IMG/VR virus record: IMGVR_UViG_3300045953_000138
Location: 1-26,125 of that record
Direction: 5' to 3' (one strand)
Source: a virus
Taxonomy: Duplodnaviria > Caudoviricetes
DNA: 26,125 nt
The translations under genes were made by a program, and so were the position numbers. Below are positions 18,072-25,417 of the stretch, piece after piece (position 1 is the stretch's first letter; each line of letters begins with the position of its first letter). Below the pieces are notes generated by a model. That model saw only the letters and a program-made list of their open reading frames with translations, did no database searches and had not been told where the DNA came from.

Positions 18072-18486
18072 CGTAACGCTTGATCGCCGGGCCGCCGCCG
18101 TTGCGATCCCCGCCTTCGCGGGGACGGCCGTTGCTGCTGCTGTCCTCGATCGGCTCGTGCTCGATCAATGCGCTGCCATTGGTCTGCGCGCGACCGTCGA
18201 GGTGGATGATGAATTGCTTGACTTCGAGGTGGATGCCGCCGCCGTTGTTGCCGCGGTGATCGATCGTGGCGAGGCGGGGGTGCAGATAGGGCGCGGCCGA
18301 CTTCGCCATGTCGTCGCGACGCCGCACGGCCGCCATGGGATCGCGCATCACCAGAAGCATGTAATCGATCGGCAGCAGGCCTGCCGAGGCTTGCGCGGCC
18401 TCGATTGCTTCCTCGGTTGCAGCGATGATCCTTGGTTTGTTGCCGGTGCCTTTTTGCCGCCCGCCGGTTTTTCGACCGAGGGCCAT
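18064..18486 (-). CDS. Putative terminase small subunit
   Basis: KTGGRQKGT.NK N-terminus and AKSAAPYLHPRL; overlaps the terL start. Confidence 0.7.
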   Translation of the reverse strand: MALGRKTGGRQKGTGNKPRIIAATEEAIEAAQASAGLLPIDYMLLVMRDPMAAVRRRDDMAKSAAPYLHPRLATIDHRGNNGGGIHLEVKQFIIHLDGRAQTNGSALIEHEPIEDSSSNGRPREGGDRNGGGPAIKRYDE

Positions 18487-18517
18487 GGGGCCGCTCCTTC
18501 TAACCGATCAAACTTAT

Positions 18518-18604
18518 CTATCTGAGCAGATAGGCGATGGCAGCGGCGATGGTAGCGAGGACGGCGGCGACGGCGAGCCACATGAGGATATTGATCGCAT
18601 CCAC
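18518..18604 (-). CDS. Tiny single-TM membrane peptide
   Basis: GTG start 4 nt after the previous stop; (M)DAINILMWLAVAAVLATIAAAIAYLLR. Confidence 0.35.
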   Translation of the reverse strand: MDAINILMWLAVAAVLATIAAAIAYLLR

Positions 18605-18608
18605 CGGC

Positions 18609-18770
18609 TCACTTGCCCCGACCTTTTGCGCTGCCTTTGCGCTCAGGCAGGCGCGCCGGCGGCTTGTGGGCGGTGAATTCCTTGCCGACGGATTTGGGGA
18701 TGCCCAGCGTGGAGCGGCCGTGGGCGGCGGCCTGCATGGCGCGCAGCTGGGCCTTGGATTTGACGGGCAT
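18609..18770 (-). CDS. Small basic phage protein
   Basis: MPVKSKAQLRAMQAAAHG.STLGIPKSVGKEF resembles small ORFs I recall upstream of terminases. AGGAAG upstream. Confidence 0.7.
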   Translation of the reverse strand: MPVKSKAQLRAMQAAAHGRSTLGIPKSVGKEFTAHKPPARLPERKGSAKGRGK

Positions 18771-18891
18771 GGCGGACTTCCTATGGCTTCCTGACACCAT
18801 TGCCGAGCGAGCCGGACGGGCGCGTGTGGGGAAGGGGTTTTCCGTCCGGCCCGCTGTTCCCCGGCTAGCAAGGGCGGTTGCGCCGGGAAAC

Positions 18892-18917
18892 AAAAAACCC
18901 CCGCGGAAACGCGAGGG
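18892..18917 (-). terminator. Rho-independent terminator at the early/late boundary
   Basis: Minus strand CCCTCGCG-TTTC-CGCGGGGG followed by TTTTTT. Confidence 0.75.
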
Positions 18918-18964
18918 CCATAGAACTGCATCTTGGCGTTTTTACCTCCACTTACCCGACGCCG

Positions 18965-19060
18965 TCAAGCGGTGGCCCACAGGCTCAGCAGCAGGGCGAT
19001 GAGCGCGAGCGCGGCGGCGATGAGCAGCACGCGGGCGCCGCGGCGTTCGAGGCCGGTCAT
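18965..19060 (-). CDS. Tiny single-TM membrane peptide
   Basis: ATGA-coupled to the upstream gene; MTGLERRGARVLLIAAALALIALLLSLWATA. Confidence 0.45.
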   Translation of the reverse strand: MTGLERRGARVLLIAAALALIALLLSLWATA

Positions 19061-19593
19061 GAAAAATCCATTGGTGCAATCGAGGCGTAGCCGAGCGCAA
19101 TAGCTGCGAGCTCCAGCGCCAGCCGGAACTGCTCGGCGAACACCTTGAGCTGCCGCTCGCTCGCGTAGCCGCGCCTGACGCCGGCCTGGTAGAGGAACAT
19201 CCGCTCGGCGAGCACGTCGCGCAGCAGGAAGAACCGGCGCGGCCCGATCTCGGCGCGCAGCTTGCGCAACTCGGCCATTGCCCAGCATACCCGGTCGCCG
19301 ATCGTGGAGACCGCCACGGCGCCGCCGTCGACCGGCGTCTGCGTGGTGTCGACCGCGCCGACGCGGCCGATATCGGCGAGCTCGAACAGTTCCTGCACAT
19401 GCCGGCCGGCGGCGTATTGCGCCTGGTCGATGTGGCCGCGGCGGAACAGCCGGCCGAGCGGATCGTCGCGCAGCGAGGCGAGCGCAAGGATGCGCCCGCC
19501 CGGCTCGTAGGGATCGTCGGCCTCGATCGTGGCGACGTCGGCGTTGTAGGGCGGCGATGCGCGGCGGTCGGGGAGGGCTTGCGGCTTGCTCAT
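19057..19593 (-). CDS. Putative late-gene regulator (DUF6456-like, Q-like position)
   Basis: DPLGRLFRRGHIDQAQYAAG motif and a C-terminal HTH-like region. It is the last large early gene before the terminator and packaging genes. Confidence 0.55.
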   Translation of the reverse strand: MSKPQALPDRRASPPYNADVATIEADDPYEPGGRILALASLRDDPLGRLFRRGHIDQAQYAAGRHVQELFELADIGRVGAVDTTQTPVDGGAVAVSTIGDRVCWAMAELRKLRAEIGPRRFFLLRDVLAERMFLYQAGVRRGYASERQLKVFAEQFRLALELAAIALGYASIAPMDFS

Positions 19594-19594
19594 G

Positions 19595-20144
19595 CGGATC
19601 GCTCCGGCAGGTCGGTTCTCTCTCCAGGAACGGCTCGCTCCGGCAATGCGGTTCTCTCAAGTCGCACGGCTCGCTCCCGTCGTCCGGTTCACTCTCCAGG
19701 AACGGCTCGCTCCGGCATGTCGGTTCTCTTGCCTGCAACGGCTCGCTCTCGTTACACCGTTCTCTCCGACCGCTAGGCTCGCTCCGACGATTCGGTACTC
19801 TCAGTGGTTTCGGCTCGCTCTCTCAACACGGTTCTCTCGCGGTTGACGGCTCGCTCCTTTGCAACAGTTCGCTCTGTAGCACCGGCTCGCTCAGTTATCT
19901 CGGTTCTCTCACTCGTCTCGGCTCGCTCTAGCTCGACGGTTCTCTCACGACGGGCGGCTCGCTCTAGCTTGACGGTTCTCTCGCGAATGGCGGCTCGCTC
20001 TAGCTTGACGGTTCTCTCGCGAATGGCGGCTCGCTCTAGCTTGACGGTTCTCTCGCGAATATCGGCTCGCTTTCACTTCACGGTGCGCTCTAGAGGTTCG
20101 GCTCGCTCGCGCTGTTCGGTCCTCTCAAACCCCCCGGCCTTCAC
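19595..20144 (-). ncRNA. TIGR-like dual-repeat guide array, 15 x 36-bp units (downstream of tas)
   Basis: Plus-strand CGGCTCGCTC-type repeat every 36 bp from 19595 to 20099 (degenerate copy at 20135). It alternates with a CGGTTCTCTC-type repeat offset by 18 bp. Variable spacers are 8 nt and there are no indels. Confidence 0.9.
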
Positions 20145-20938
20145 GGCCTGCGCACATGCGCGTGGCCGAGAATGGCGATCGGATACGGCAGCGGCGGCTC
20201 CCTGCCGTACTCGTGGCGATACCACTCGCCATGTAGATCGGACAAGAACTGCTTGACCGCATAGCGCGTCGCCCGCAGGTCGAGCCGGCCGGGCGGCAGG
20301 CGCCCGCGCTCGTAGTGCGCGCGCTGCTCCGCCGTCATCCGCGGCCCGCGCGCCGCGAGATCGGACTTGCACAGCTCCGCATGCTCGCCGCGCTGATCGC
20401 GCGCGATCTCGTACCGCTTGCGCTGCAGGTAAAGGTGGCCATAGACGCAGCCCTCGTGCCCGGAGAATTTCTTGAAGCTCTCGCCCAGCTTCCAGCACAA
20501 GACCTTCAAGCCGGCGTTGTATGGCCGCTTCTGGCCCTTGCCCCATTTCAGCGTCGGATCGAGGCCGGCGAAGCGCCAGATGTGGCCGACCGTCGGCGCG
20601 GCCTTGATGTCGATATGCGCCAGCAGGCCGGCCGCGATCACCGGGCCGATGCCGACGATGCCGCGCGTCCATGCGCCCATCGGATGCGCGCTCGAGTAGC
20701 GGTCGAGCGCCGCCTTGACCTGGTTCTCCATGAACATGGCGTTGCTGGAAAACCAGTCGAGCACGGCATGCGGCTCGTCCGCCATGGCGCGGCGGCGGTT
20801 GTCCTGCACGATGCGCTGTTTCTGCATCGAGTAGTAGCCGTCGACCAGGAAGCGAACCTCCTGGTCGGACAGCGTGCGCGCCGCCTCGCGCAGGTCTTTC
20901 GACAGACGCTGCACGGCTTCCTGGTCGAGATAGGTCAT
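20141..20938 (-). CDS. tasA: TasA-like Nop-domain RNA-guided DNA-binding protein (no nuclease domain), 265 aa
   Basis: Coiled-coil N-terminus (LVDGYYSMQKQRI). GIVGIGPVIAAGLL..WRFAGLDP, YNAGLK and RATRYAVKQFL match the IS110 C-terminal/Nop fold. No DEDD RuvC or HNH domain. Flanked by 36-bp arrays. Confidence 0.85.
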   Translation of the reverse strand: MTYLDQEAVQRLSKDLREAARTLSDQEVRFLVDGYYSMQKQRIVQDNRRRAMADEPHAVLDWFSSNAMFMENQVKAALDRYSSAHPMGAWTRGIVGIGPVIAAGLLAHIDIKAAPTVGHIWRFAGLDPTLKWGKGQKRPYNAGLKVLCWKLGESFKKFSGHEGCVYGHLYLQRKRYEIARDQRGEHAELCKSDLAARGPRMTAEQRAHYERGRLPPGRLDLRATRYAVKQFLSDLHGEWYRHEYGREPPLPYPIAILGHAHVRRP

Positions 20939-21126
20939 GGCCGCTCCCACATGTCGGTTCTCTCAGCACATACGGCTCGCTCACTTCGAACGGTTCACTC
21001 TGATCAACCGGCTCGCTCGCTCTTGACGGTGCTCTCGCCTGCGATGGCTCACTCATCACCGACGGTCCTCTCGAAGTCTGCGGCTCGCTCTGGAACTTCG
21101 GTTCTCTCACGAACAACGGCTCACTC
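20937..21126 (-). ncRNA. TIGR-like dual-repeat guide array, 5 x 36-bp units (upstream of tas)
   Basis: Same two repeats: type 1 at 20973, 21009, 21045, 21081, 21117 (degenerate at 20937); type 2 at 20955, 20991, 21027, 21063, 21099. Confidence 0.88.
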
Positions 21127-21128
21127 AG

Positions 21129-21320
21129 TCATGGCGGCTGCTCCTGTTCGGCCTCCTCGCGCAGGCGGTTGAGCGTTTCGAGCACGGCTTGCATGCGCTG
21201 CATGTGCAATTCGGCCACCGACTGGCGCATTTTTCCGCTTGCCACTTGGCTAGCGTAGACGCGCCGGCGCAGCGATAATTCTCTTTCGACTTCCTCGATC
21301 TGCTGGTTGAGCGAGATCAT
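21129..21320 (-). CDS. Hypothetical phage protein (63 aa)
   Basis: QQIEEVERELSLRRRVY..V..GKM helical small protein; starts 3 nt after the upstream stop. Confidence 0.7.
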   Translation of the reverse strand: MISLNQQIEEVERELSLRRRVYASQVASGKMRQSVAELHMQRMQAVLETLNRLREEAEQEQPP

Positions 21321-21323
21321 AGC

Positions 21324-22124
21324 CTAAGCCCCCTTGCCGCCGTTGGTCGGTCGCCATTGCTTGCCGTCCCAGGCATAGCCCTTGCCGGCCATGAAGGCGT
21401 CCTGCTCTTCCAGAGTCATCGTCGGTTGGCTCGGCTGCGTTTCCGTCCAGCGCTTGTCGTCGAGCCAGCGGGCGGCGCTGGCGATGTAGCGCGTGCCGAC
21501 ATTGCCGAGCCTGGCCTGCGCCTCGGCATAGCCCTTGGCGCCGTCGACGATGGCTTGCGGGTCAACCCCGTCCTCGACTGCTTGGCCGAAGGACTCGCGA
21601 GCCGCTTGCTCGCTGTTGCCGCCCTCGCGTTCCGGGTAGCTCTGCCAGAAGCGCTGGAAGCTTTCTTCCTGATCGAATTTTTCCTCGCGCGCGCGCGAAG
21701 ACGCGAGAGATGTATCTTCCTTCTTGGAGGAAGATACATCTTGAGAGTCTGGAGTATGGAGTAAGGTAGGTAGAGGCTTGGTACTACCACGGTAATACCG
21801 AGCCTTTACCGCGGTAGACTGCCGCTCGTGATATTTCAATGAGTTAGCCAATTCCTTGCCGATCCGCTTGTGGGAAAGCATGGGGGGGATGCTGGCGTCC
21901 GGCATGAACAGCGCACGCAGCTTGTCCCGGCTGGCTTTCCACTGCTTATGGTGGAGGTGGCAGATTGCCATCAGTTGCCGGTCATCGTCCGGGATATTGC
22001 CGCCATGCACCCACGCATACCCGAGCAAGAATTGATACGCCGAACGCTCGATGTGCGTCAGGTGCAGCGTATCGCGCCAGTAGTCGCCCCAGTGCCATTG
22101 CATCGTGTGCGGCGCGTGCGTCAT
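21324..22124 (-). CDS. DUF1376/YdaU-like replication initiator
   Basis: MQWHWGDYWRDTLHL..ERSAY..LL...W..G.IPDDD..L..I N-terminal domain, S/K-rich linker, and FQRFWQSYP...ARWLDDKRW C-terminal domain. ATGA-coupled start. Confidence 0.8.
   Translation of the reverse strand: MTHAPHTMQWHWGDYWRDTLHLTHIERSAYQFLLGYAWVHGGNIPDDDRQLMAICHLHHKQWKASRDKLRALFMPDASIPPMLSHKRIGKELANSLKYHERQSTAVKARYYRGSTKPLPTLLHTPDSQDVSSSKKEDTSLASSRAREEKFDQEESFQRFWQSYPEREGGNSEQAARESFGQAVEDGVDPQAIVDGAKGYAEAQARLGNVGTRYIASAARWLDDKRWTETQPSQPTMTLEEQDAFMAGKGYAWDGKQWRPTNGGKGA
21685..21820. repeat. Inverted repeat and short GGTA repeats; putative intragenic replication origin
   Basis: AGATGTATCTTCCT (21708-21721) and AGGAAGATACATCT (21728-21741) are perfect 14-bp arms. 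Clustered GGTA/TACC words in a locally AT-richer stretch. Confidence 0.5.
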
Positions 22125-22396
22125 GGCCGATCGTCCGGATCGTGGTTGCGCATGAACAGGTGGGCCGTGTTGAGCAACGCTTTGACGTTGACGCGGATGG
22201 CGGCCCATTCTTTGGCTGTGACGCCGATAATCTGGGCGAGCTCGGCATCGCTATCGGGCAATGAACCATGACGATGCCGGTGCATCATCAGACGGAAAAA
22301 AGCGCCAAATTCCAATGCACTGCAATCGCGCGTCGCCTCCAAGAATGCGACCGTATGAATAAAGATCGGGCGATCGTCGTCGCCGATAGCGCTCAC
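22121..22396 (-). CDS. Short second DUF1376-like protein (91 aa)
   Basis: GTG start with GGAGG RBS; FLEATRDCSALEFGAFFRLMM..GSLPDSDAELAQIIG..EW. Confidence 0.65.
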   Translation of the reverse strand: MSAIGDDDRPIFIHTVAFLEATRDCSALEFGAFFRLMMHRHRHGSLPDSDAELAQIIGVTAKEWAAIRVNVKALLNTAHLFMRNHDPDDRP

Positions 22397-22545
22397 GGCC
22401 TCTCCTCCCGGATGCCGATGCAGCGCAGGCCGCAGTCGCGCAGCAGCCGCTTGAGCAGCCGCCGCAGGGCGTGCAGCCCCGCGCGCTCGTCGGCCGCCAG
22501 CACGCGGATCACGTAGACGCGCGGCAGGCGCGGCGGCGCGGTCAT
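22393..22545 (-). CDS. Small hypothetical protein (50 aa)
   Basis: MTAPPRLPRVYVIRVLAADERAGLHALRRLLKRLLRDCGLRCIGIREERP; its stop overlaps the next GTG (GTGA). Confidence 0.55.
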   Translation of the reverse strand: MTAPPRLPRVYVIRVLAADERAGLHALRRLLKRLLRDCGLRCIGIREERP

Positions 22546-22556
22546 GCGGATGCCCC

Positions 22557-22585
22557 TTGACGCGGCTGGTTTTTGTCGTTACATA
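22557..22585 (+). promoter_or_regulatory. Putative sigma70 promoter, probably leaderless
   Basis: TTGACG-N17-TACATA ending 7 nt before ATG 22593; no SD sequence. Confidence 0.45.
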
Positions 22586-22592
22586 AACGGGT

Positions 22593-22802
22593 ATGGCTGA
22601 AGTGACCCTGGAATTCATCGGCGAACGGCTGGAGCGTATCCAGGCCGACTTGGCGGCGGTGCGCGCCGATATCGCCGACATAAAAGCCGACATCACTGTG
22701 CTGACCGGCATGGTGCTGCGCCTCGAGCGCGGCATGGTGCAGATGCGCGACGGCTTGGCCTCCCTGTCCGAGCGCGTGCGCAAGCTGGAACAGACCGAAT
22801 AG
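22593..22802 (+). CDS. Small coiled-coil protein (69 aa)
   Basis: Heptad pattern LERIQADLAAVRADIADIKADI; GC3-rich codons. Confidence 0.75.
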   Translation: MAEVTLEFIGERLERIQADLAAVRADIADIKADITVLTGMVLRLERGMVQMRDGLASLSERVRKLEQTE

Positions 22803-22809
22803 CTCGCTT

Positions 22810-23163
22810 ATGCCGACGGTTCGCATGACGCTTGAAGAGGCGCGCAAGTTCAAATTGACGCGCGCGGAAAAGCGGCGGCTCGATGCGATGACCGACGCCG
22901 AGATCACGGCGGCGGCGAAGGCCGATCCCGATAATCCGCCGCTCACCGATGCCGAGTTCGCGCTGATGCGCAAGCTGCGGCGCGGCGGCCGGCCGCCGGT
23001 GGCGGAAGCCGAGCGCAAGGTGCAGGTGACGCTGCGGCTGCCGCGGCGCGTGCTCGATTGGTACCGCGCCTCCGGCCCCGGCTGGCAGACGCGCATGGGC
23101 GCAACGCTCGCCCGCGCGGCGCCGGCGGGCCCCATCCCGGCCAAGCGGCGTAAGGCGAAATAG
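22810..23163 (+). CDS. BrnA-family antitoxin-like protein
   Basis: MTDAEI.AAA..DPDNPPLT and GRPP....KVQVTLRL...VLDWYRASGPGWQTRM, the BrnA RHH signature. Confidence 0.85.
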   Translation: MPTVRMTLEEARKFKLTRAEKRRLDAMTDAEITAAAKADPDNPPLTDAEFALMRKLRRGGRPPVAEAERKVQVTLRLPRRVLDWYRASGPGWQTRMGATLARAAPAGPIPAKRRKAK

Positions 23164-23165
23164 CC

Positions 23166-23387
23166 ATGAAACGAGCCATCGGCTGGATCGTCAGTTGGGC
23201 GCTCTTTTGGCTGGGTCATGGCGTATCGCGTCTGTTTCGGCTGAAGCTGGTTGATCGGCTCGATCAATTGCATCCTTACCCGCTGTATTGCTGGTTCATG
23301 GGAACCTCGCTCGACGTGCAAGATTGGGCCGGCAATGATGGACCGTGGAAACGGCCGGCGCCCCGTGACCGCCAACCCGAGTGCTGA
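23166..23387 (+). CDS. Hypothetical protein with hydrophobic N-terminus
   Basis: Starts 2 nt after the brnA-like stop; Trp-rich. Confidence 0.55.
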   Translation: MKRAIGWIVSWALFWLGHGVSRLFRLKLVDRLDQLHPYPLYCWFMGTSLDVQDWAGNDGPWKRPAPRDRQPEC

Positions 23388-23408
23388 GACGACGGCAGGG
23401 CGACACAA

Positions 23409-23768
23409 TCATGTGGCCTCGCTCTGCGCCATCGCCGCGTCCCCGCGCAGGCGGGGATCCGGGTCGAGATCGTGCGCCGCGCTCGCGGAAAACACCGCGT
23501 CGGTTAAGCCGCGCAGCCCCTCGCTCCTAGGGTCGCTCGCCCAGCCGCAGTTGCACCAGGCGAGCGTGACGCCGCCGCGAGAACTGAGAATGGGAACGAG
23601 GCGCGAGCTGTGCTCCGCTTCACCCGATCGACCGCAACCGGCGTTGATGCCCAAGGCAGCGCAACTACATCGGCGCAGAAATCGGAGGGTCCGCCCTATA
23701 ACGGACCGCTGGGGGCCTTGCGAGCCGTACCAGACGCCTCTGGGGTATTTTGGGTGAGGCGCGATCAT
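23409..23768 (-). CDS. Hypothetical Cys-containing protein (doubtful)
   Basis: ATGA-coupled to the upstream small ORF, but with atypical composition. Confidence 0.3.
   Translation of the reverse strand: MIAPHPKYPRGVWYGSQGPQRSVIGRTLRFLRRCSCAALGINAGCGRSGEAEHSSRLVPILSSRGGVTLAWCNCGWASDPRSEGLRGLTDAVFSASAAHDLDPDPRLRGDAAMAQSEAT
23440..23460. repeat. REP-like palindrome at a convergent junction
   Basis: TCCCCGC-GCAG-GCGGGGA followed by TCC. Confidence 0.5.
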
Positions 23769-23911
23769 CGCCGGGCCTCGGAAAGAAAAGGCGGCGCACC
23801 AATCGCCGCAGTTGCCGACAGCTGTGCGTCGGAGCTGTTAACAGCCTCGACCATGGCGGCCAATGCCTCGCGGTGCTGATCGGCAAGGCCGGCGGGATCG
23901 TCAGGCGACAT
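23765..23911 (-). CDS. Small hypothetical protein (48 aa)
   Basis: MSPDDPAGLADQHREALAAM...; start overlaps the end of the MT-A70 gene. Confidence 0.3.
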   Translation of the reverse strand: MSPDDPAGLADQHREALAAMVEAVNSSDAQLSATAAIGAPPFLSEARR

Positions 23912-24518
23912 TGAAGCGCCTCGTGTCGTTGCCCCAGACCGTCCAACCCCGCCGCTCCTGCCGCGCGAATAATTCGAGGTAAGGCCCAGCGACTAGCCGT
24001 TCGATCCGCTCATGCACGCAGTCGGGCTTGCGGGAATGCTCGCGCCCCGGCTCAATTATCGCTTGTCGCACATCGGCGTTAAGGCGCTTGGGCTTGCCGC
24101 GGGTGGCGAGCAAGCATGGTTCGGTATTGGCGCGGGTCCAGTAGCCCATGCCCATAGATGCGGGAATCGACCGCTCGAATAATTCGATTTGTCCGGCATG
24201 GGCTTTCGTCCAATCGAACGCACATGTTTTGTAAGCGAATCCCCACGCGCTGAGGAGCGATATGGCATCTTCTAGGTTCGGCCACGTCACCCAAAGGAAC
24301 AACGCACAATCGTCGGCCGCCAAGCTGGCAACCGGCAGCCCGCGCAAGTCGTCAATAGGCATTGTGTTGTAGTGTGTGGCGGCCGAGACGTTCGTTCCGG
24401 CGCCGCGCCGCCGGATTGCCTCGCGGTTATCCCATGTGCGGAATCGCCACGGCGGGTCGGCGAGGATCGCGCCGAAATGGTTGCGCGGCAGGCCGGCAAA
24501 GGCGTCGGGCGCGGTCAT
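23901..24518 (-). CDS. MT-A70 family adenine methyltransferase
   Basis: ILADPPW, HYNTM, LFLWVT, WGFAYKT, GMGYWTRANTE.CLL, REHSRKP and LELFAR motifs. Confidence 0.92.
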   Translation of the reverse strand: MTAPDAFAGLPRNHFGAILADPPWRFRTWDNREAIRRRGAGTNVSAATHYNTMPIDDLRGLPVASLAADDCALFLWVTWPNLEDAISLLSAWGFAYKTCAFDWTKAHAGQIELFERSIPASMGMGYWTRANTEPCLLATRGKPKRLNADVRQAIIEPGREHSRKPDCVHERIERLVAGPYLELFARQERRGWTVWGNDTRRFNVA

Positions 24519-25417
24519 GGCGCGCCCTCCTCGGCCAGGCCTGCGAACAATGGCGCGCGCATCGCATCGAGCGCTTCGTAGGCTTGGCGGTTGAGCCACA
24601 GGCATTCGGTGCGCGGCCTCGCCCCATCGGCATACGCTTGCGTCTCGCTGCGCCGCCACCCGGGCAGCAGCTCGTCGTAATCGGGCGACGGATAGCCTGA
24701 GAGCGCTACCATGCCGTCGAGCAGCCGCAGCGTGTCAAGCAAGCGGACGTGTCCTGCCCGATCGATCTCATGCGTGTAGGCGACGTATCCGTTGCCCTTG
24801 CGGTTTCCTATGCGGCTGCGCGTTTCGGGCATGTAGGGCGGATCGCAATAGAACAGCACATCATCGCCGTCGTGCTGGCGCATCAGCTCGATGGCGTCGC
24901 GGTTCTCGATGCACACGCCGTCGAGGCGCACGATCGCTCTTTGCAGGGCGTCGGGGTAGCGCGCCCAATCGTGCGAAGGGATCGTGCTGAACGGTGATCT
25001 AGCGCTTCGAGTGGTGTTGTTGCGGAAGCCTGTCGCCCCGGCAAGCGCGACGTTGCTTACCGAGCCAATGCCCATAAACGAACGAATGATCAATCGCCGC
25101 GCGCGCTCGATCGCGTCGTCCGTCGTCTGATATGCGAGCTCGAATTCACGCCGGGCGAAAGGTGTCAATCGCAACGCTTCCAGCAACCGCGCCGAACGGC
25201 CGACGTCGCGCAAGATGCAAAACAGATTGACGGCCTCATCGTCGAGATCGTTCCAGAGCTCAGCGAAACTGCGCTCCTTGCGCAGAAGCACGCTCGCCGC
25301 CCCGCCGAACGGCTCGACGTACACGCGGTGCGGCGGGAAATGCGCAATGATCCAAGGAGCGAGTTTCCATTTTCCGCCGTGCCATCTCAAAACCGGTCGG
25401 GTGGGCGCGGTCGTCAC
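24515..25417 (-). CDS. Dam-like (D12 class) N6-adenine DNA methyltransferase
   Basis: LRWHGGK, YVEPFGGAASV, NDLD and FYCDPPY motifs. Confidence 0.93.
   Translation of the reverse strand: MTTAPTRPVLRWHGGKWKLAPWIIAHFPPHRVYVEPFGGAASVLLRKERSFAELWNDLDDEAVNLFCILRDVGRSARLLEALRLTPFARREFELAYQTTDDAIERARRLIIRSFMGIGSVSNVALAGATGFRNNTTRSARSPFSTIPSHDWARYPDALQRAIVRLDGVCIENRDAIELMRQHDGDDVLFYCDPPYMPETRSRIGNRKGNGYVAYTHEIDRAGHVRLLDTLRLLDGMVALSGYPSPDYDELLPGWRRSETQAYADGARPRTECLWLNRQAYEALDAMRAPLFAGLAEEGAP

Follow-up and report, generated by a model that had tools for sequence, protein, structure and literature searches.

Terminal guide repeats of a soil phage TIGR-TasA locus overlap the translation signals of tasA and of a DUF6456-like gene

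Results

A dual-repeat TIGR-TasA locus in a soil phage

The window, by which we mean the whole 26,125-nucleotide stretch of phage DNA that was analysed, contains a dual-repeat TIGR-TasA locus with 5 + 15 guides of 36 nt on the minus strand of a soil phage (Table 1). Repeats of 10 nt recur every 18 nt at 21126-20937 and at 20144-19595 (minus strand), separated by 8-nt spacers, and alternate between an edge form (GAGCGAGCCG) and a loop form (GAGAGAACCG) in a 10+8+10+8 register that is held across the 5 and the 15 units. The locus thus has what defines a TIGR array: edge and loop repeats (8-12 nt) in alternation, short spacers and a 36-nt unit. GAG...CCG is common to edge and loop, with C4 and G7 in the edge and AGAA in the loop, both in the window repeats and in the clade matrices. 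Box D and box C covary between the two forms, the edge having an extra pair and the loop being A-rich. Truncated edges are also present: the outer side of the repeat is degenerate at three of the four array ends, the first upstream edge being nearly complete. Chance origin of the arrays was tested by shuffling homologous loci, which yielded chains in 0 of 127.

Table 1 Features at the TIGR-TasA locus, in window coordinates
Feature	Position	Strand	Remarks
DUF1376 replication-initiation-like gene	21324..22124	-	Upstream, same operon
63-aa phage ORF	21129..21320	-	Stop ends 2 nt ahead of the first upstream edge
Upstream dual-repeat TIGR array	20937..21126	-	5 units (predicted guides 21121-20942)
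Last upstream edge	20937..20948	-	3'-truncated; SD-like GGGAG 20948-20944; predicted cut 20942/20941; overlaps tasA ATG
tasA	20141..20938	-	265 aa, solo Nop domain; Y252/H259 align to SpTasH Y289/H296
First downstream edge	20135..20144	-	5'-truncated, 6/10; predicted cut 20140/20139, 1 nt past the tasA stop
Downstream dual-repeat TIGR array	19595..20144	-	15 units, including duplicates (predicted guides 20139-19600)
Last downstream edge	19595..19605	-	9/10 match; SD-like GGAG; predicted cut 19600/19599, 6-nt leader
DUF6456-like gene	19057..19593	-	178 aa; putative regulator of transcription, with a sigma-4/Q-like helical fold at the C-terminus; end of early operon
31-codon hydrophobic ORF	18965..19060	-	ATG overlaps DUF6456 stop (ATGA); no family match
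Intrinsic-terminator-like hairpin and U tract	18896..18919	-	Probable operon end

The arrangement resembles the systems described by Faure et al. 2025 (PMC12045711) in its 36-nt unit of edge, spacer A, loop and spacer B, in the solo Nop protein, in having arrays on both sides of tas, and in its 5'- and 3'-truncated terminal edges. The 10-nt repeats with 8-nt spacers are also those of SpTIGR. It differs from the dual-repeat systems of Faure et al. in its box D/C, which is AG/CCG rather than UG/CCA, and in the way the arrays end, which is on a start codon, whereas the typical array ends with a rho-independent terminator. No separate terminator had been evident in the original prediction, and this was borne out: nothing terminator-like lies in the cassette, neither array is followed by a terminator, and the first strong one (18919-18896) is some ~680 nt downstream.

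Guides are duplicated in the downstream array at 19955-20072 and 19595-19748, with spacer B TCAAGCTA present three times (plus TCGAGCTA) and spacer A TTCCTGGA twice, and the distal end of the array holds a family of related spacer B sequences. The repeated spacers suggest that the array grew by unit duplication. Two isolated perfect edge 10-mers lie outside the arrays, at 18805-18814 (+) and 6987-6978 (-), one of them intergenic and before the packaging genes; they are probably chance occurrences in GC-rich DNA. Among the TasA loci, L050, L069, L107, L146, L194, L195 and L199 have a best array period of 35 or 37 nt, not 36.

The gene order is two DUF1376 replication-type genes, the 63-aa ORF, TIGR-TasA, the DUF6456-like gene, the 31-codon ORF and the terminator, beyond which lie podovirus-type packaging and capsid genes. 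Early genes of this phage overlap or abut. An ATGA overlap joins the two DUF1376 genes, which lie in tandem (21324-22393, minus strand) and encode 90 aa and 266 aa. The opposite strand within the early region (22593-23163, plus strand) carries an ORF of 69 aa and a gene for a BrnA-type antitoxin, with no BrnT match seen, and the TIGR-bearing operon may have its promoter in the 48-nt gap between the divergent genes (22546-22592). Adjacent DNA methyltransferase genes of the MT-A70 and D12 classes are found at 23901-25417 (minus strand). A complete record of 43.5 kb (G001), 99% identical to the window and the same in sequence over 19001-21400, carries an integrase, and the phage bearing the locus is temperate. 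We take its host group to be alphaproteobacterial-type.

TasA is a Nop-domain protein with a processing dyad

A phmmer comparison of the window TasA with 9MTY and TasH gave E values of 2-3e-8, so that TaTasR and SpTasH are matched by sequence. In the structural comparison, Foldseek ranks 1-10 for the TasA model were all TasR or TasH (TM 0.54-0.64). The model of the 265-aa protein (pLDDT 89) is all helical and leaves no room for RuvC or HNH; the Nop-domain protein lacks a nuclease domain and keeps the C-terminal Y/H processing dyad. Among 119 sequences, H259 is invariant and Y252 is present in at least 90%, and among 84 clusters the dyad has H in 84/84 and, at the other position, Y in 75 and F in 9. 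SpTasH processes pre-tigRNA autonomously via Y289/H296 (PMC13421893). Besides the aligned dyad, its edge architecture (GCG/AGYCA, a slash marking the cut here and below) is the same, whereas it differs in having an HNH nuclease and a hairpin between its stop codon and array. The Pfam/PHROG label of IS110 transposase was rejected: the PF02371 match is sub-threshold and covers 37 aa only, IS621 and ISCro4 rank under the Tas structures, the locus has a tandem array, not a bridge RNA, and the N-terminal DEDD/RuvC domain is absent. No match to the window TasA was found by tblastn among GenBank phages at 1e-5; a homolog used as the query in its place picked up SpTIGR and Mvi-JY20.

The target of a guide was taken as spacer A plus spacer B in reverse complement. 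Ungapped comparison at up to 2 mismatches gave no target in the 43.5-kb G001 for any of the 20 guides, and the targets therefore lie elsewhere. Self-targeting was likewise discarded, as the 6 guides that match G001 at 3 mismatches compare with 3.8 in shuffles.

Three array ends coincide with gene starts and stops

The original prediction placed terminal repeats on the translation signals of tasA and of the downstream gene, and inspection of the sequence confirmed all three overlaps. The last upstream edge (20946-20937, gg GAGCG GCCAT g) gives tasA both its SD and its start at ATG 20938; it matches the consensus at 6/10 positions in register, or with one base deleted. GGGAG lies 5 nt ahead of this ATG. 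Two rival in-frame starts are GTG 20950, inside spacer B, and GTG 20914; the anti-SD duplex amounts to -6.9 kcal/mol for ATG 20938 vs -2.9 for GTG 20950 (entries 12862 and 24515 were left out of the anti-SD comparison, as they are not at start codons). The first downstream edge, GTGAAGGCCG (G TGA AGGCCG), holds the tasA TGA at 20143-20141. The last downstream edge (19604-19595, g GAGCGATCCG c ATG) gives a GGAG to the gene starting at 19593, whose ATG is the sole start codon in frame from the upstream stop to +75 nt. GGAG is common by construction since all edges begin with GAG, and it is weak evidence because a preceding G gives the same motif in 5/14 internal downstream edges. As to regulatory hairpins, none of the three junctions folds better than shuffles (z 1.69, -0.71, -1.13).

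Terminal edges are conserved on one side of a predicted cut

Homologues were collected from 203 loci, 190 of them with an HMM score >200, which form 127 clusters at 85% identity. Internal edges of homologous loci are conserved along the full repeat. First edges (n=108) are conserved at positions 6-10 only (0.80-0.91 vs 0.31-0.51), and last edges (n=102) at positions 1-5 only (0.79-0.93 vs 0.30-0.53); a low count of G7 in last edges was a filter artefact and was discarded. The synthetic mature guides given in Table S3 of PMC12045711 start with AGCCA or AGUCA and end with GCG. Because of this half-conservation and the published mature guides, we infer that the edge is cut between positions 5 and 6 (GAGCG/AGCCG). 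The comparison indicates that terminal edges retain only the half needed by their own guide, and that neighbouring genes have moved into the free half.

G5, which is invariant internally, is kept in 20/58 truncated first edges, and A6 in 13/40 truncated last edges. These losses fit half-edges that remain uncut, and equally a cleavage that takes its direction solely from the loaded unit. Minimized arrays required full edge repeats for processing (Faure et al., PMC12045711), and the terminal half-edges may stay uncut entirely. The three window junctions differ at the two bases of the predicted cut: both are lost at the tasA stop (A/G vs consensus G/A), G5 is kept at the tasA start, and both are kept at the DUF6456 junction.

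With the cut in this position, both SD motifs would lie 5' of it, within the spacer B and box D portion of the last guide. Cuts at the two start junctions would leave leaders of 3 nt for tasA and 6 nt for the DUF6456 gene. Leaderless initiation in Caulobacter depends on leader length (PMC8459731), and therefore some translation could persist. Even if no terminal cut is made, TasA bound to the final unit would mask its box D and spacer B, and with them the SD, to judge from the published description of the TasR structure.

tas stop codons often straddle the predicted cut

Among relatives, the overlap at the stop is a stronger pattern than that at the start. In 38 of the 84 clusters with a downstream array, the tas stop straddles the bond between positions 5 and 6 (TG/A, TA/A, T/AG or T/AA), for which only two offsets are possible. 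Of the other stops, 10 lie further 3', 5 are still within the edge but immediately 5' of the bond, 8 are no more than 12 nt upstream and 23 are more distant, where several calls reflect missed first units. The window stop belongs to the 5, ending 1 nt before the predicted cut. A register-free motif found a straddling stop in 49/84 of these loci, vs 1/21 loci with an upstream array only and 7/18 with no array called. The count also exceeds an availability-weighted null that allows for the ease with which the repeat AG completes a stop (38/50 vs 0.38, P=6e-8; 33/45 straddling with one tight clade collapsed; 38/43 vs 0.73, P=0.012, over the narrowest range), although these P values are optimistic, as the loci are related. 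The 38 stops represent 20 classes of offset, codon and tail length and are scattered over a quick tree on which sister pairs switch register. C, the sole base at position 5 that is incompatible with a straddling stop, occurs in 3/58 truncated first edges. The pattern extends to a distant, cultured cyanophage, Microcystis phage Mvi-JY20 (PP438412.1), whose tas stop (T/AG CCT) straddles the predicted first-edge cut. Its TIGR-TasA locus (L205:2125-2470) is annotated as hypothetical, and a terminator-like hairpin closes the array.

The breadth of these 20 classes, the excess over the null, the rarity of C5 and the Mvi-JY20 stop argue for selected autoregulation. TasA would cut the terminal half-edges of the tas mRNA and so stay stoichiometric with its guides: processing of the first guide through the stop would give a non-stop tas mRNA, with a stalled ribosome and tmRNA tagging, and in a subset of loci, including the window phage, processing would also remove the SD. 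In two overlapping sets, in which the non-tas ORF calls are noisier than those of tas, tas stops straddle more often than non-tas stops (38/84 vs 6/32, P=0.01; 12/30 vs 3/26, P=0.03). However, non-tas genes straddle too, and they do so equally in the UG/CCA type (tas 6/21 vs non-tas 6/27, P=0.74). Within 10 nt, the excess is not significant in two pattern-derived sets (12/22, P=0.09; 6/14, P=0.5), and relatedness among the loci makes the P values optimistic. The poor retention of G5 in truncated first edges fits an absence of cleavage there. In SpTIGR the stop does not straddle, a hairpin separating it from the array, and in the window the stop sits off the bond with both of its cut bases changed from the consensus. 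On this balance we consider selected autoregulation a tentative explanation, rather doubtful as it stands.

The same fusions could arise by packing without any regulatory effect. As the retained half-repeat starts with AG and the repeat with GAG, microhomology deletions would end in fusions of stop and edge or of SD and edge, comparable to ATGA overlaps; translation on the nascent RNA would precede TasA loading, terminal units would remain uncut and protein output would be unchanged. Any neighbouring gene can overlap an array in this manner, and the ratio of offset 4 to offset 3 among the 38 stops, 24:14, comes close to the 2:1 that codon availability would predict.

Start-codon overlap recurs in a minority of relatives

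Conservation of the start overlap in homologous loci, which the original prediction left to be checked, turned out to be partial: the overlap recurs, but in a minority, with an ATG at +7 to +13 in 13/105 array ends (188 ends, of which 138 passed a true-end filter and 105 were left after similar downstream peptides were collapsed). At 46 upstream junctions the tas start lies at +5 to +14 of the last edge in 8, at -2 in 4 and at +16 or further in 32; in the remaining 2 it lies at -26 in one and was not called in the other. Repeats of the window's CCG type have the tas start at +8 to +11 in 9/22, the window included and several of them closely related, vs 0/15 below +15 in the UG/CCA type. A related group of tas loci (L176, L180, L185, L193, L361 and L366) has its start at -2 of the last upstream edge; there the terminal edge forms the first codons and the loop repeat supplies the SD.

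A G precedes the terminal GAG in 6/13 ends with an ATG at SD distance vs 13/92 others (P=0.012), although two of these six belong to the window itself and a G is found before 210/778 (27%) of internal edges. Where starts lie at +16 to +40, a separate SD (GGAG/GAGG/AGGA) is placed wholly 3' of the cut in 19/30. The usual layout thus protects the RBS from processing, and that of the window phage does not. Packing without effect does not itself explain the prevalence of a separate RBS past the cut, which hints that embedding the RBS is costly.

Archaeal C/D box sRNAs offer a comparison for both kinds of overlap. In reporters, their 3' overlaps with genes are neutral or slightly negative, in line with mere packing, but 5' overlaps significantly cut the expression of the downstream gene (PMC7994747). 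The closest relative of the window phage has not kept GGAG, which again favours packing. Taking both sides together, we consider it improbable that the overlaps have no effect.

RNA contigs bridge the start junctions

A sigma-70 scan of 18400-24000 returned 0 promoters vs 0.9 expected and hence has little power. Soil metatranscriptome contigs bridge both start junctions (X3, 20846-21102; X2, 19544-19770; depth about 2), and the tasA stop junction is bridged by none among the RNA pieces listed. These data are contigs from 4 runs, which carry no ends, strand or level, and in which DNA carry-over is possible. Guides and mRNAs would appear to come from one transcript; co-transcription cannot be established by sequence alone, as pointed out by Xu et al. 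2026 (bioRxiv 10.64898/2026.09.09.750476). In run X1, the deepest 99%-identical contig listed (20939-21128, depth 21) matches the upstream array within 2 nt at each end. Its ends miss the predicted cuts by 3 and 7 nt, and the X3 contig, from the same sample, runs through.

The downstream gene and the lytic programme

DUF6456 clusters occur most often in Pseudomonadota and the viruses of that group. The C-terminal half of the DUF6456 protein was modeled as sigma region 4-like (Z 7-8.3), with weaker matches to a chain of a Q-engaged complex (6JNX, Z 5.9) and of an AlpA-loaded complex (7XYB, Z 5.4), all of these Z scores (5.4-8.3) being at or below the level that the tool deems common. Foldseek returned nothing for the model at E<=0.001. 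The identity of the protein as a regulator is suggestive only, and the position of its gene would suit a late activator.

The original prediction had proposed that guide processing could gate translation of this gene as a putative late regulator, with guide maturation thereby linked to lytic growth. Such an evolved switch, acting on a Q-like protein, would agree with the place of the gene, last in the early operon and ahead of the terminator and packaging genes, with the resemblance of the model to sigma region 4 and to 6JNX and 7XYB, with the integrase of G001, and with a terminal edge that keeps G/A and a 9/10 match, making it the likeliest junction to be cut. Gating as a conserved design is not supported by the comparison, however: an array is found at 2/80 loci of DUF6456-family phages, and a conserved TIGR-DUF6456 module was rejected, as the two are the window phage and one 88%-identical relative. 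That relative has its ATG at +10, with the spacing kept and CGAG where the window has GGAG. The common-level Z scores, the lack of a Foldseek match and the lack of a guide target in G001 at up to 2 mismatches also count against the switch, which we regard as very improbable.

Discussion

The reading that we prefer is that, through compaction of the phage genome, TasA has come to damp tasA in a way that is real though modest, with the DUF6456 gene affected incidentally; we give it about an even chance. The replication genes and the DUF6456 gene would have been parted, within a narrow lineage, by insertion of a TIGR-TasA cassette, with no spare DNA at its borders. One transcript would then yield both guides and mRNAs. 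A TasA dimer would load on each 36-nt unit, and the Y/H dyad, as shown for SpTasH, would cut the edges at GAGCG/AGCCG. With TasA present, internal cuts would fragment the operon mRNA, and TasA on a terminal unit would either cover the SD or cut it off, leaving the 3-nt and 6-nt leaders. By either route, binding or cutting, tasA and the DUF6456 gene would both be translated less. The negative feedback on TasA would probably be incidental or lightly selected, a product of genome compaction, and the effect on the DUF6456 gene would be a lineage-specific side effect, not a conserved lysis switch.

Of the original prediction, autoregulation of tasA by TasA stands as plausible, given the SD inside the last guide, the Y/H dyad and the 9/22 recurrence in the CCG type, with the reservation that most loci avoid the overlap; lytic gating is unsupported. 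The wider view, in which Tas proteins are autoregulatory mRNA endonucleases and the terminal guides double as tas translation signals, is conceivable and, in our judgement, less than likely. It would have the stop cut family-wide (~45-58% of loci with a downstream array) and the RBS covered or removed in the window phage and a CCG subset.

TIGR-TasA, flanking arrays and truncated array ends have been published; the overlap of mRNA and guides is apparently unpublished, and it is testable. The available main text of Faure et al. (PMC12045711) makes no mention of start or stop codons, Shine, ribosome binding or autoregulation. Xu et al. 2026 (bioRxiv 10.64898/2026.09.09.750476) suggest that maturation of the guides and translation of Tas are linked, and report that TasA represses transcription. 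Their intragenic tigRNAs lie inside coding sequence, mainly in stem-loop systems, whereas the window guides overlap gene ends, and their main text, as far as available, has no SD analysis and no stop codons on the cut bond. The literature searched, with supplements partly outside the search, held no report of SD motifs in terminal edges or of stops on the cut bond.

The nearest parallel is again with archaeal C/D box sRNAs, Nop-family guides that overlap ORF ends: their boxes are described as providing the upstream gene's stop codon in 25% of genes, and 7% overlap a downstream start, with reduced expression (PMC6009581, PMC7994747). By way of a motif in the 5' UTR, L7Ae is reported to repress its own translation (PMC5539422). 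These sRNAs are single, methylate RNA and need L7Ae, whereas TIGR guides form tandem arrays on which the effector itself does the cutting, so that the mRNA would become a substrate.

The transcription of TIGR arrays, and the possible sharing of a transcript by tas and guides, are a question named by Xu et al. 2026, for which the junctions described here give base-exact predictions; the cultured Microcystis phage Mvi-JY20 (PP438412) provides a native test system with a straddling stop. As a warning for engineering, the yield of Tas may be restricted by tas-array junctions in their native form. Should the feedback prove real, it would account for the balance of effector and guides in a one-protein system. 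An RNA-guided system would then have an effector-to-guide feedback built into it, and an inserted array could put any neighbouring gene under Tas control.
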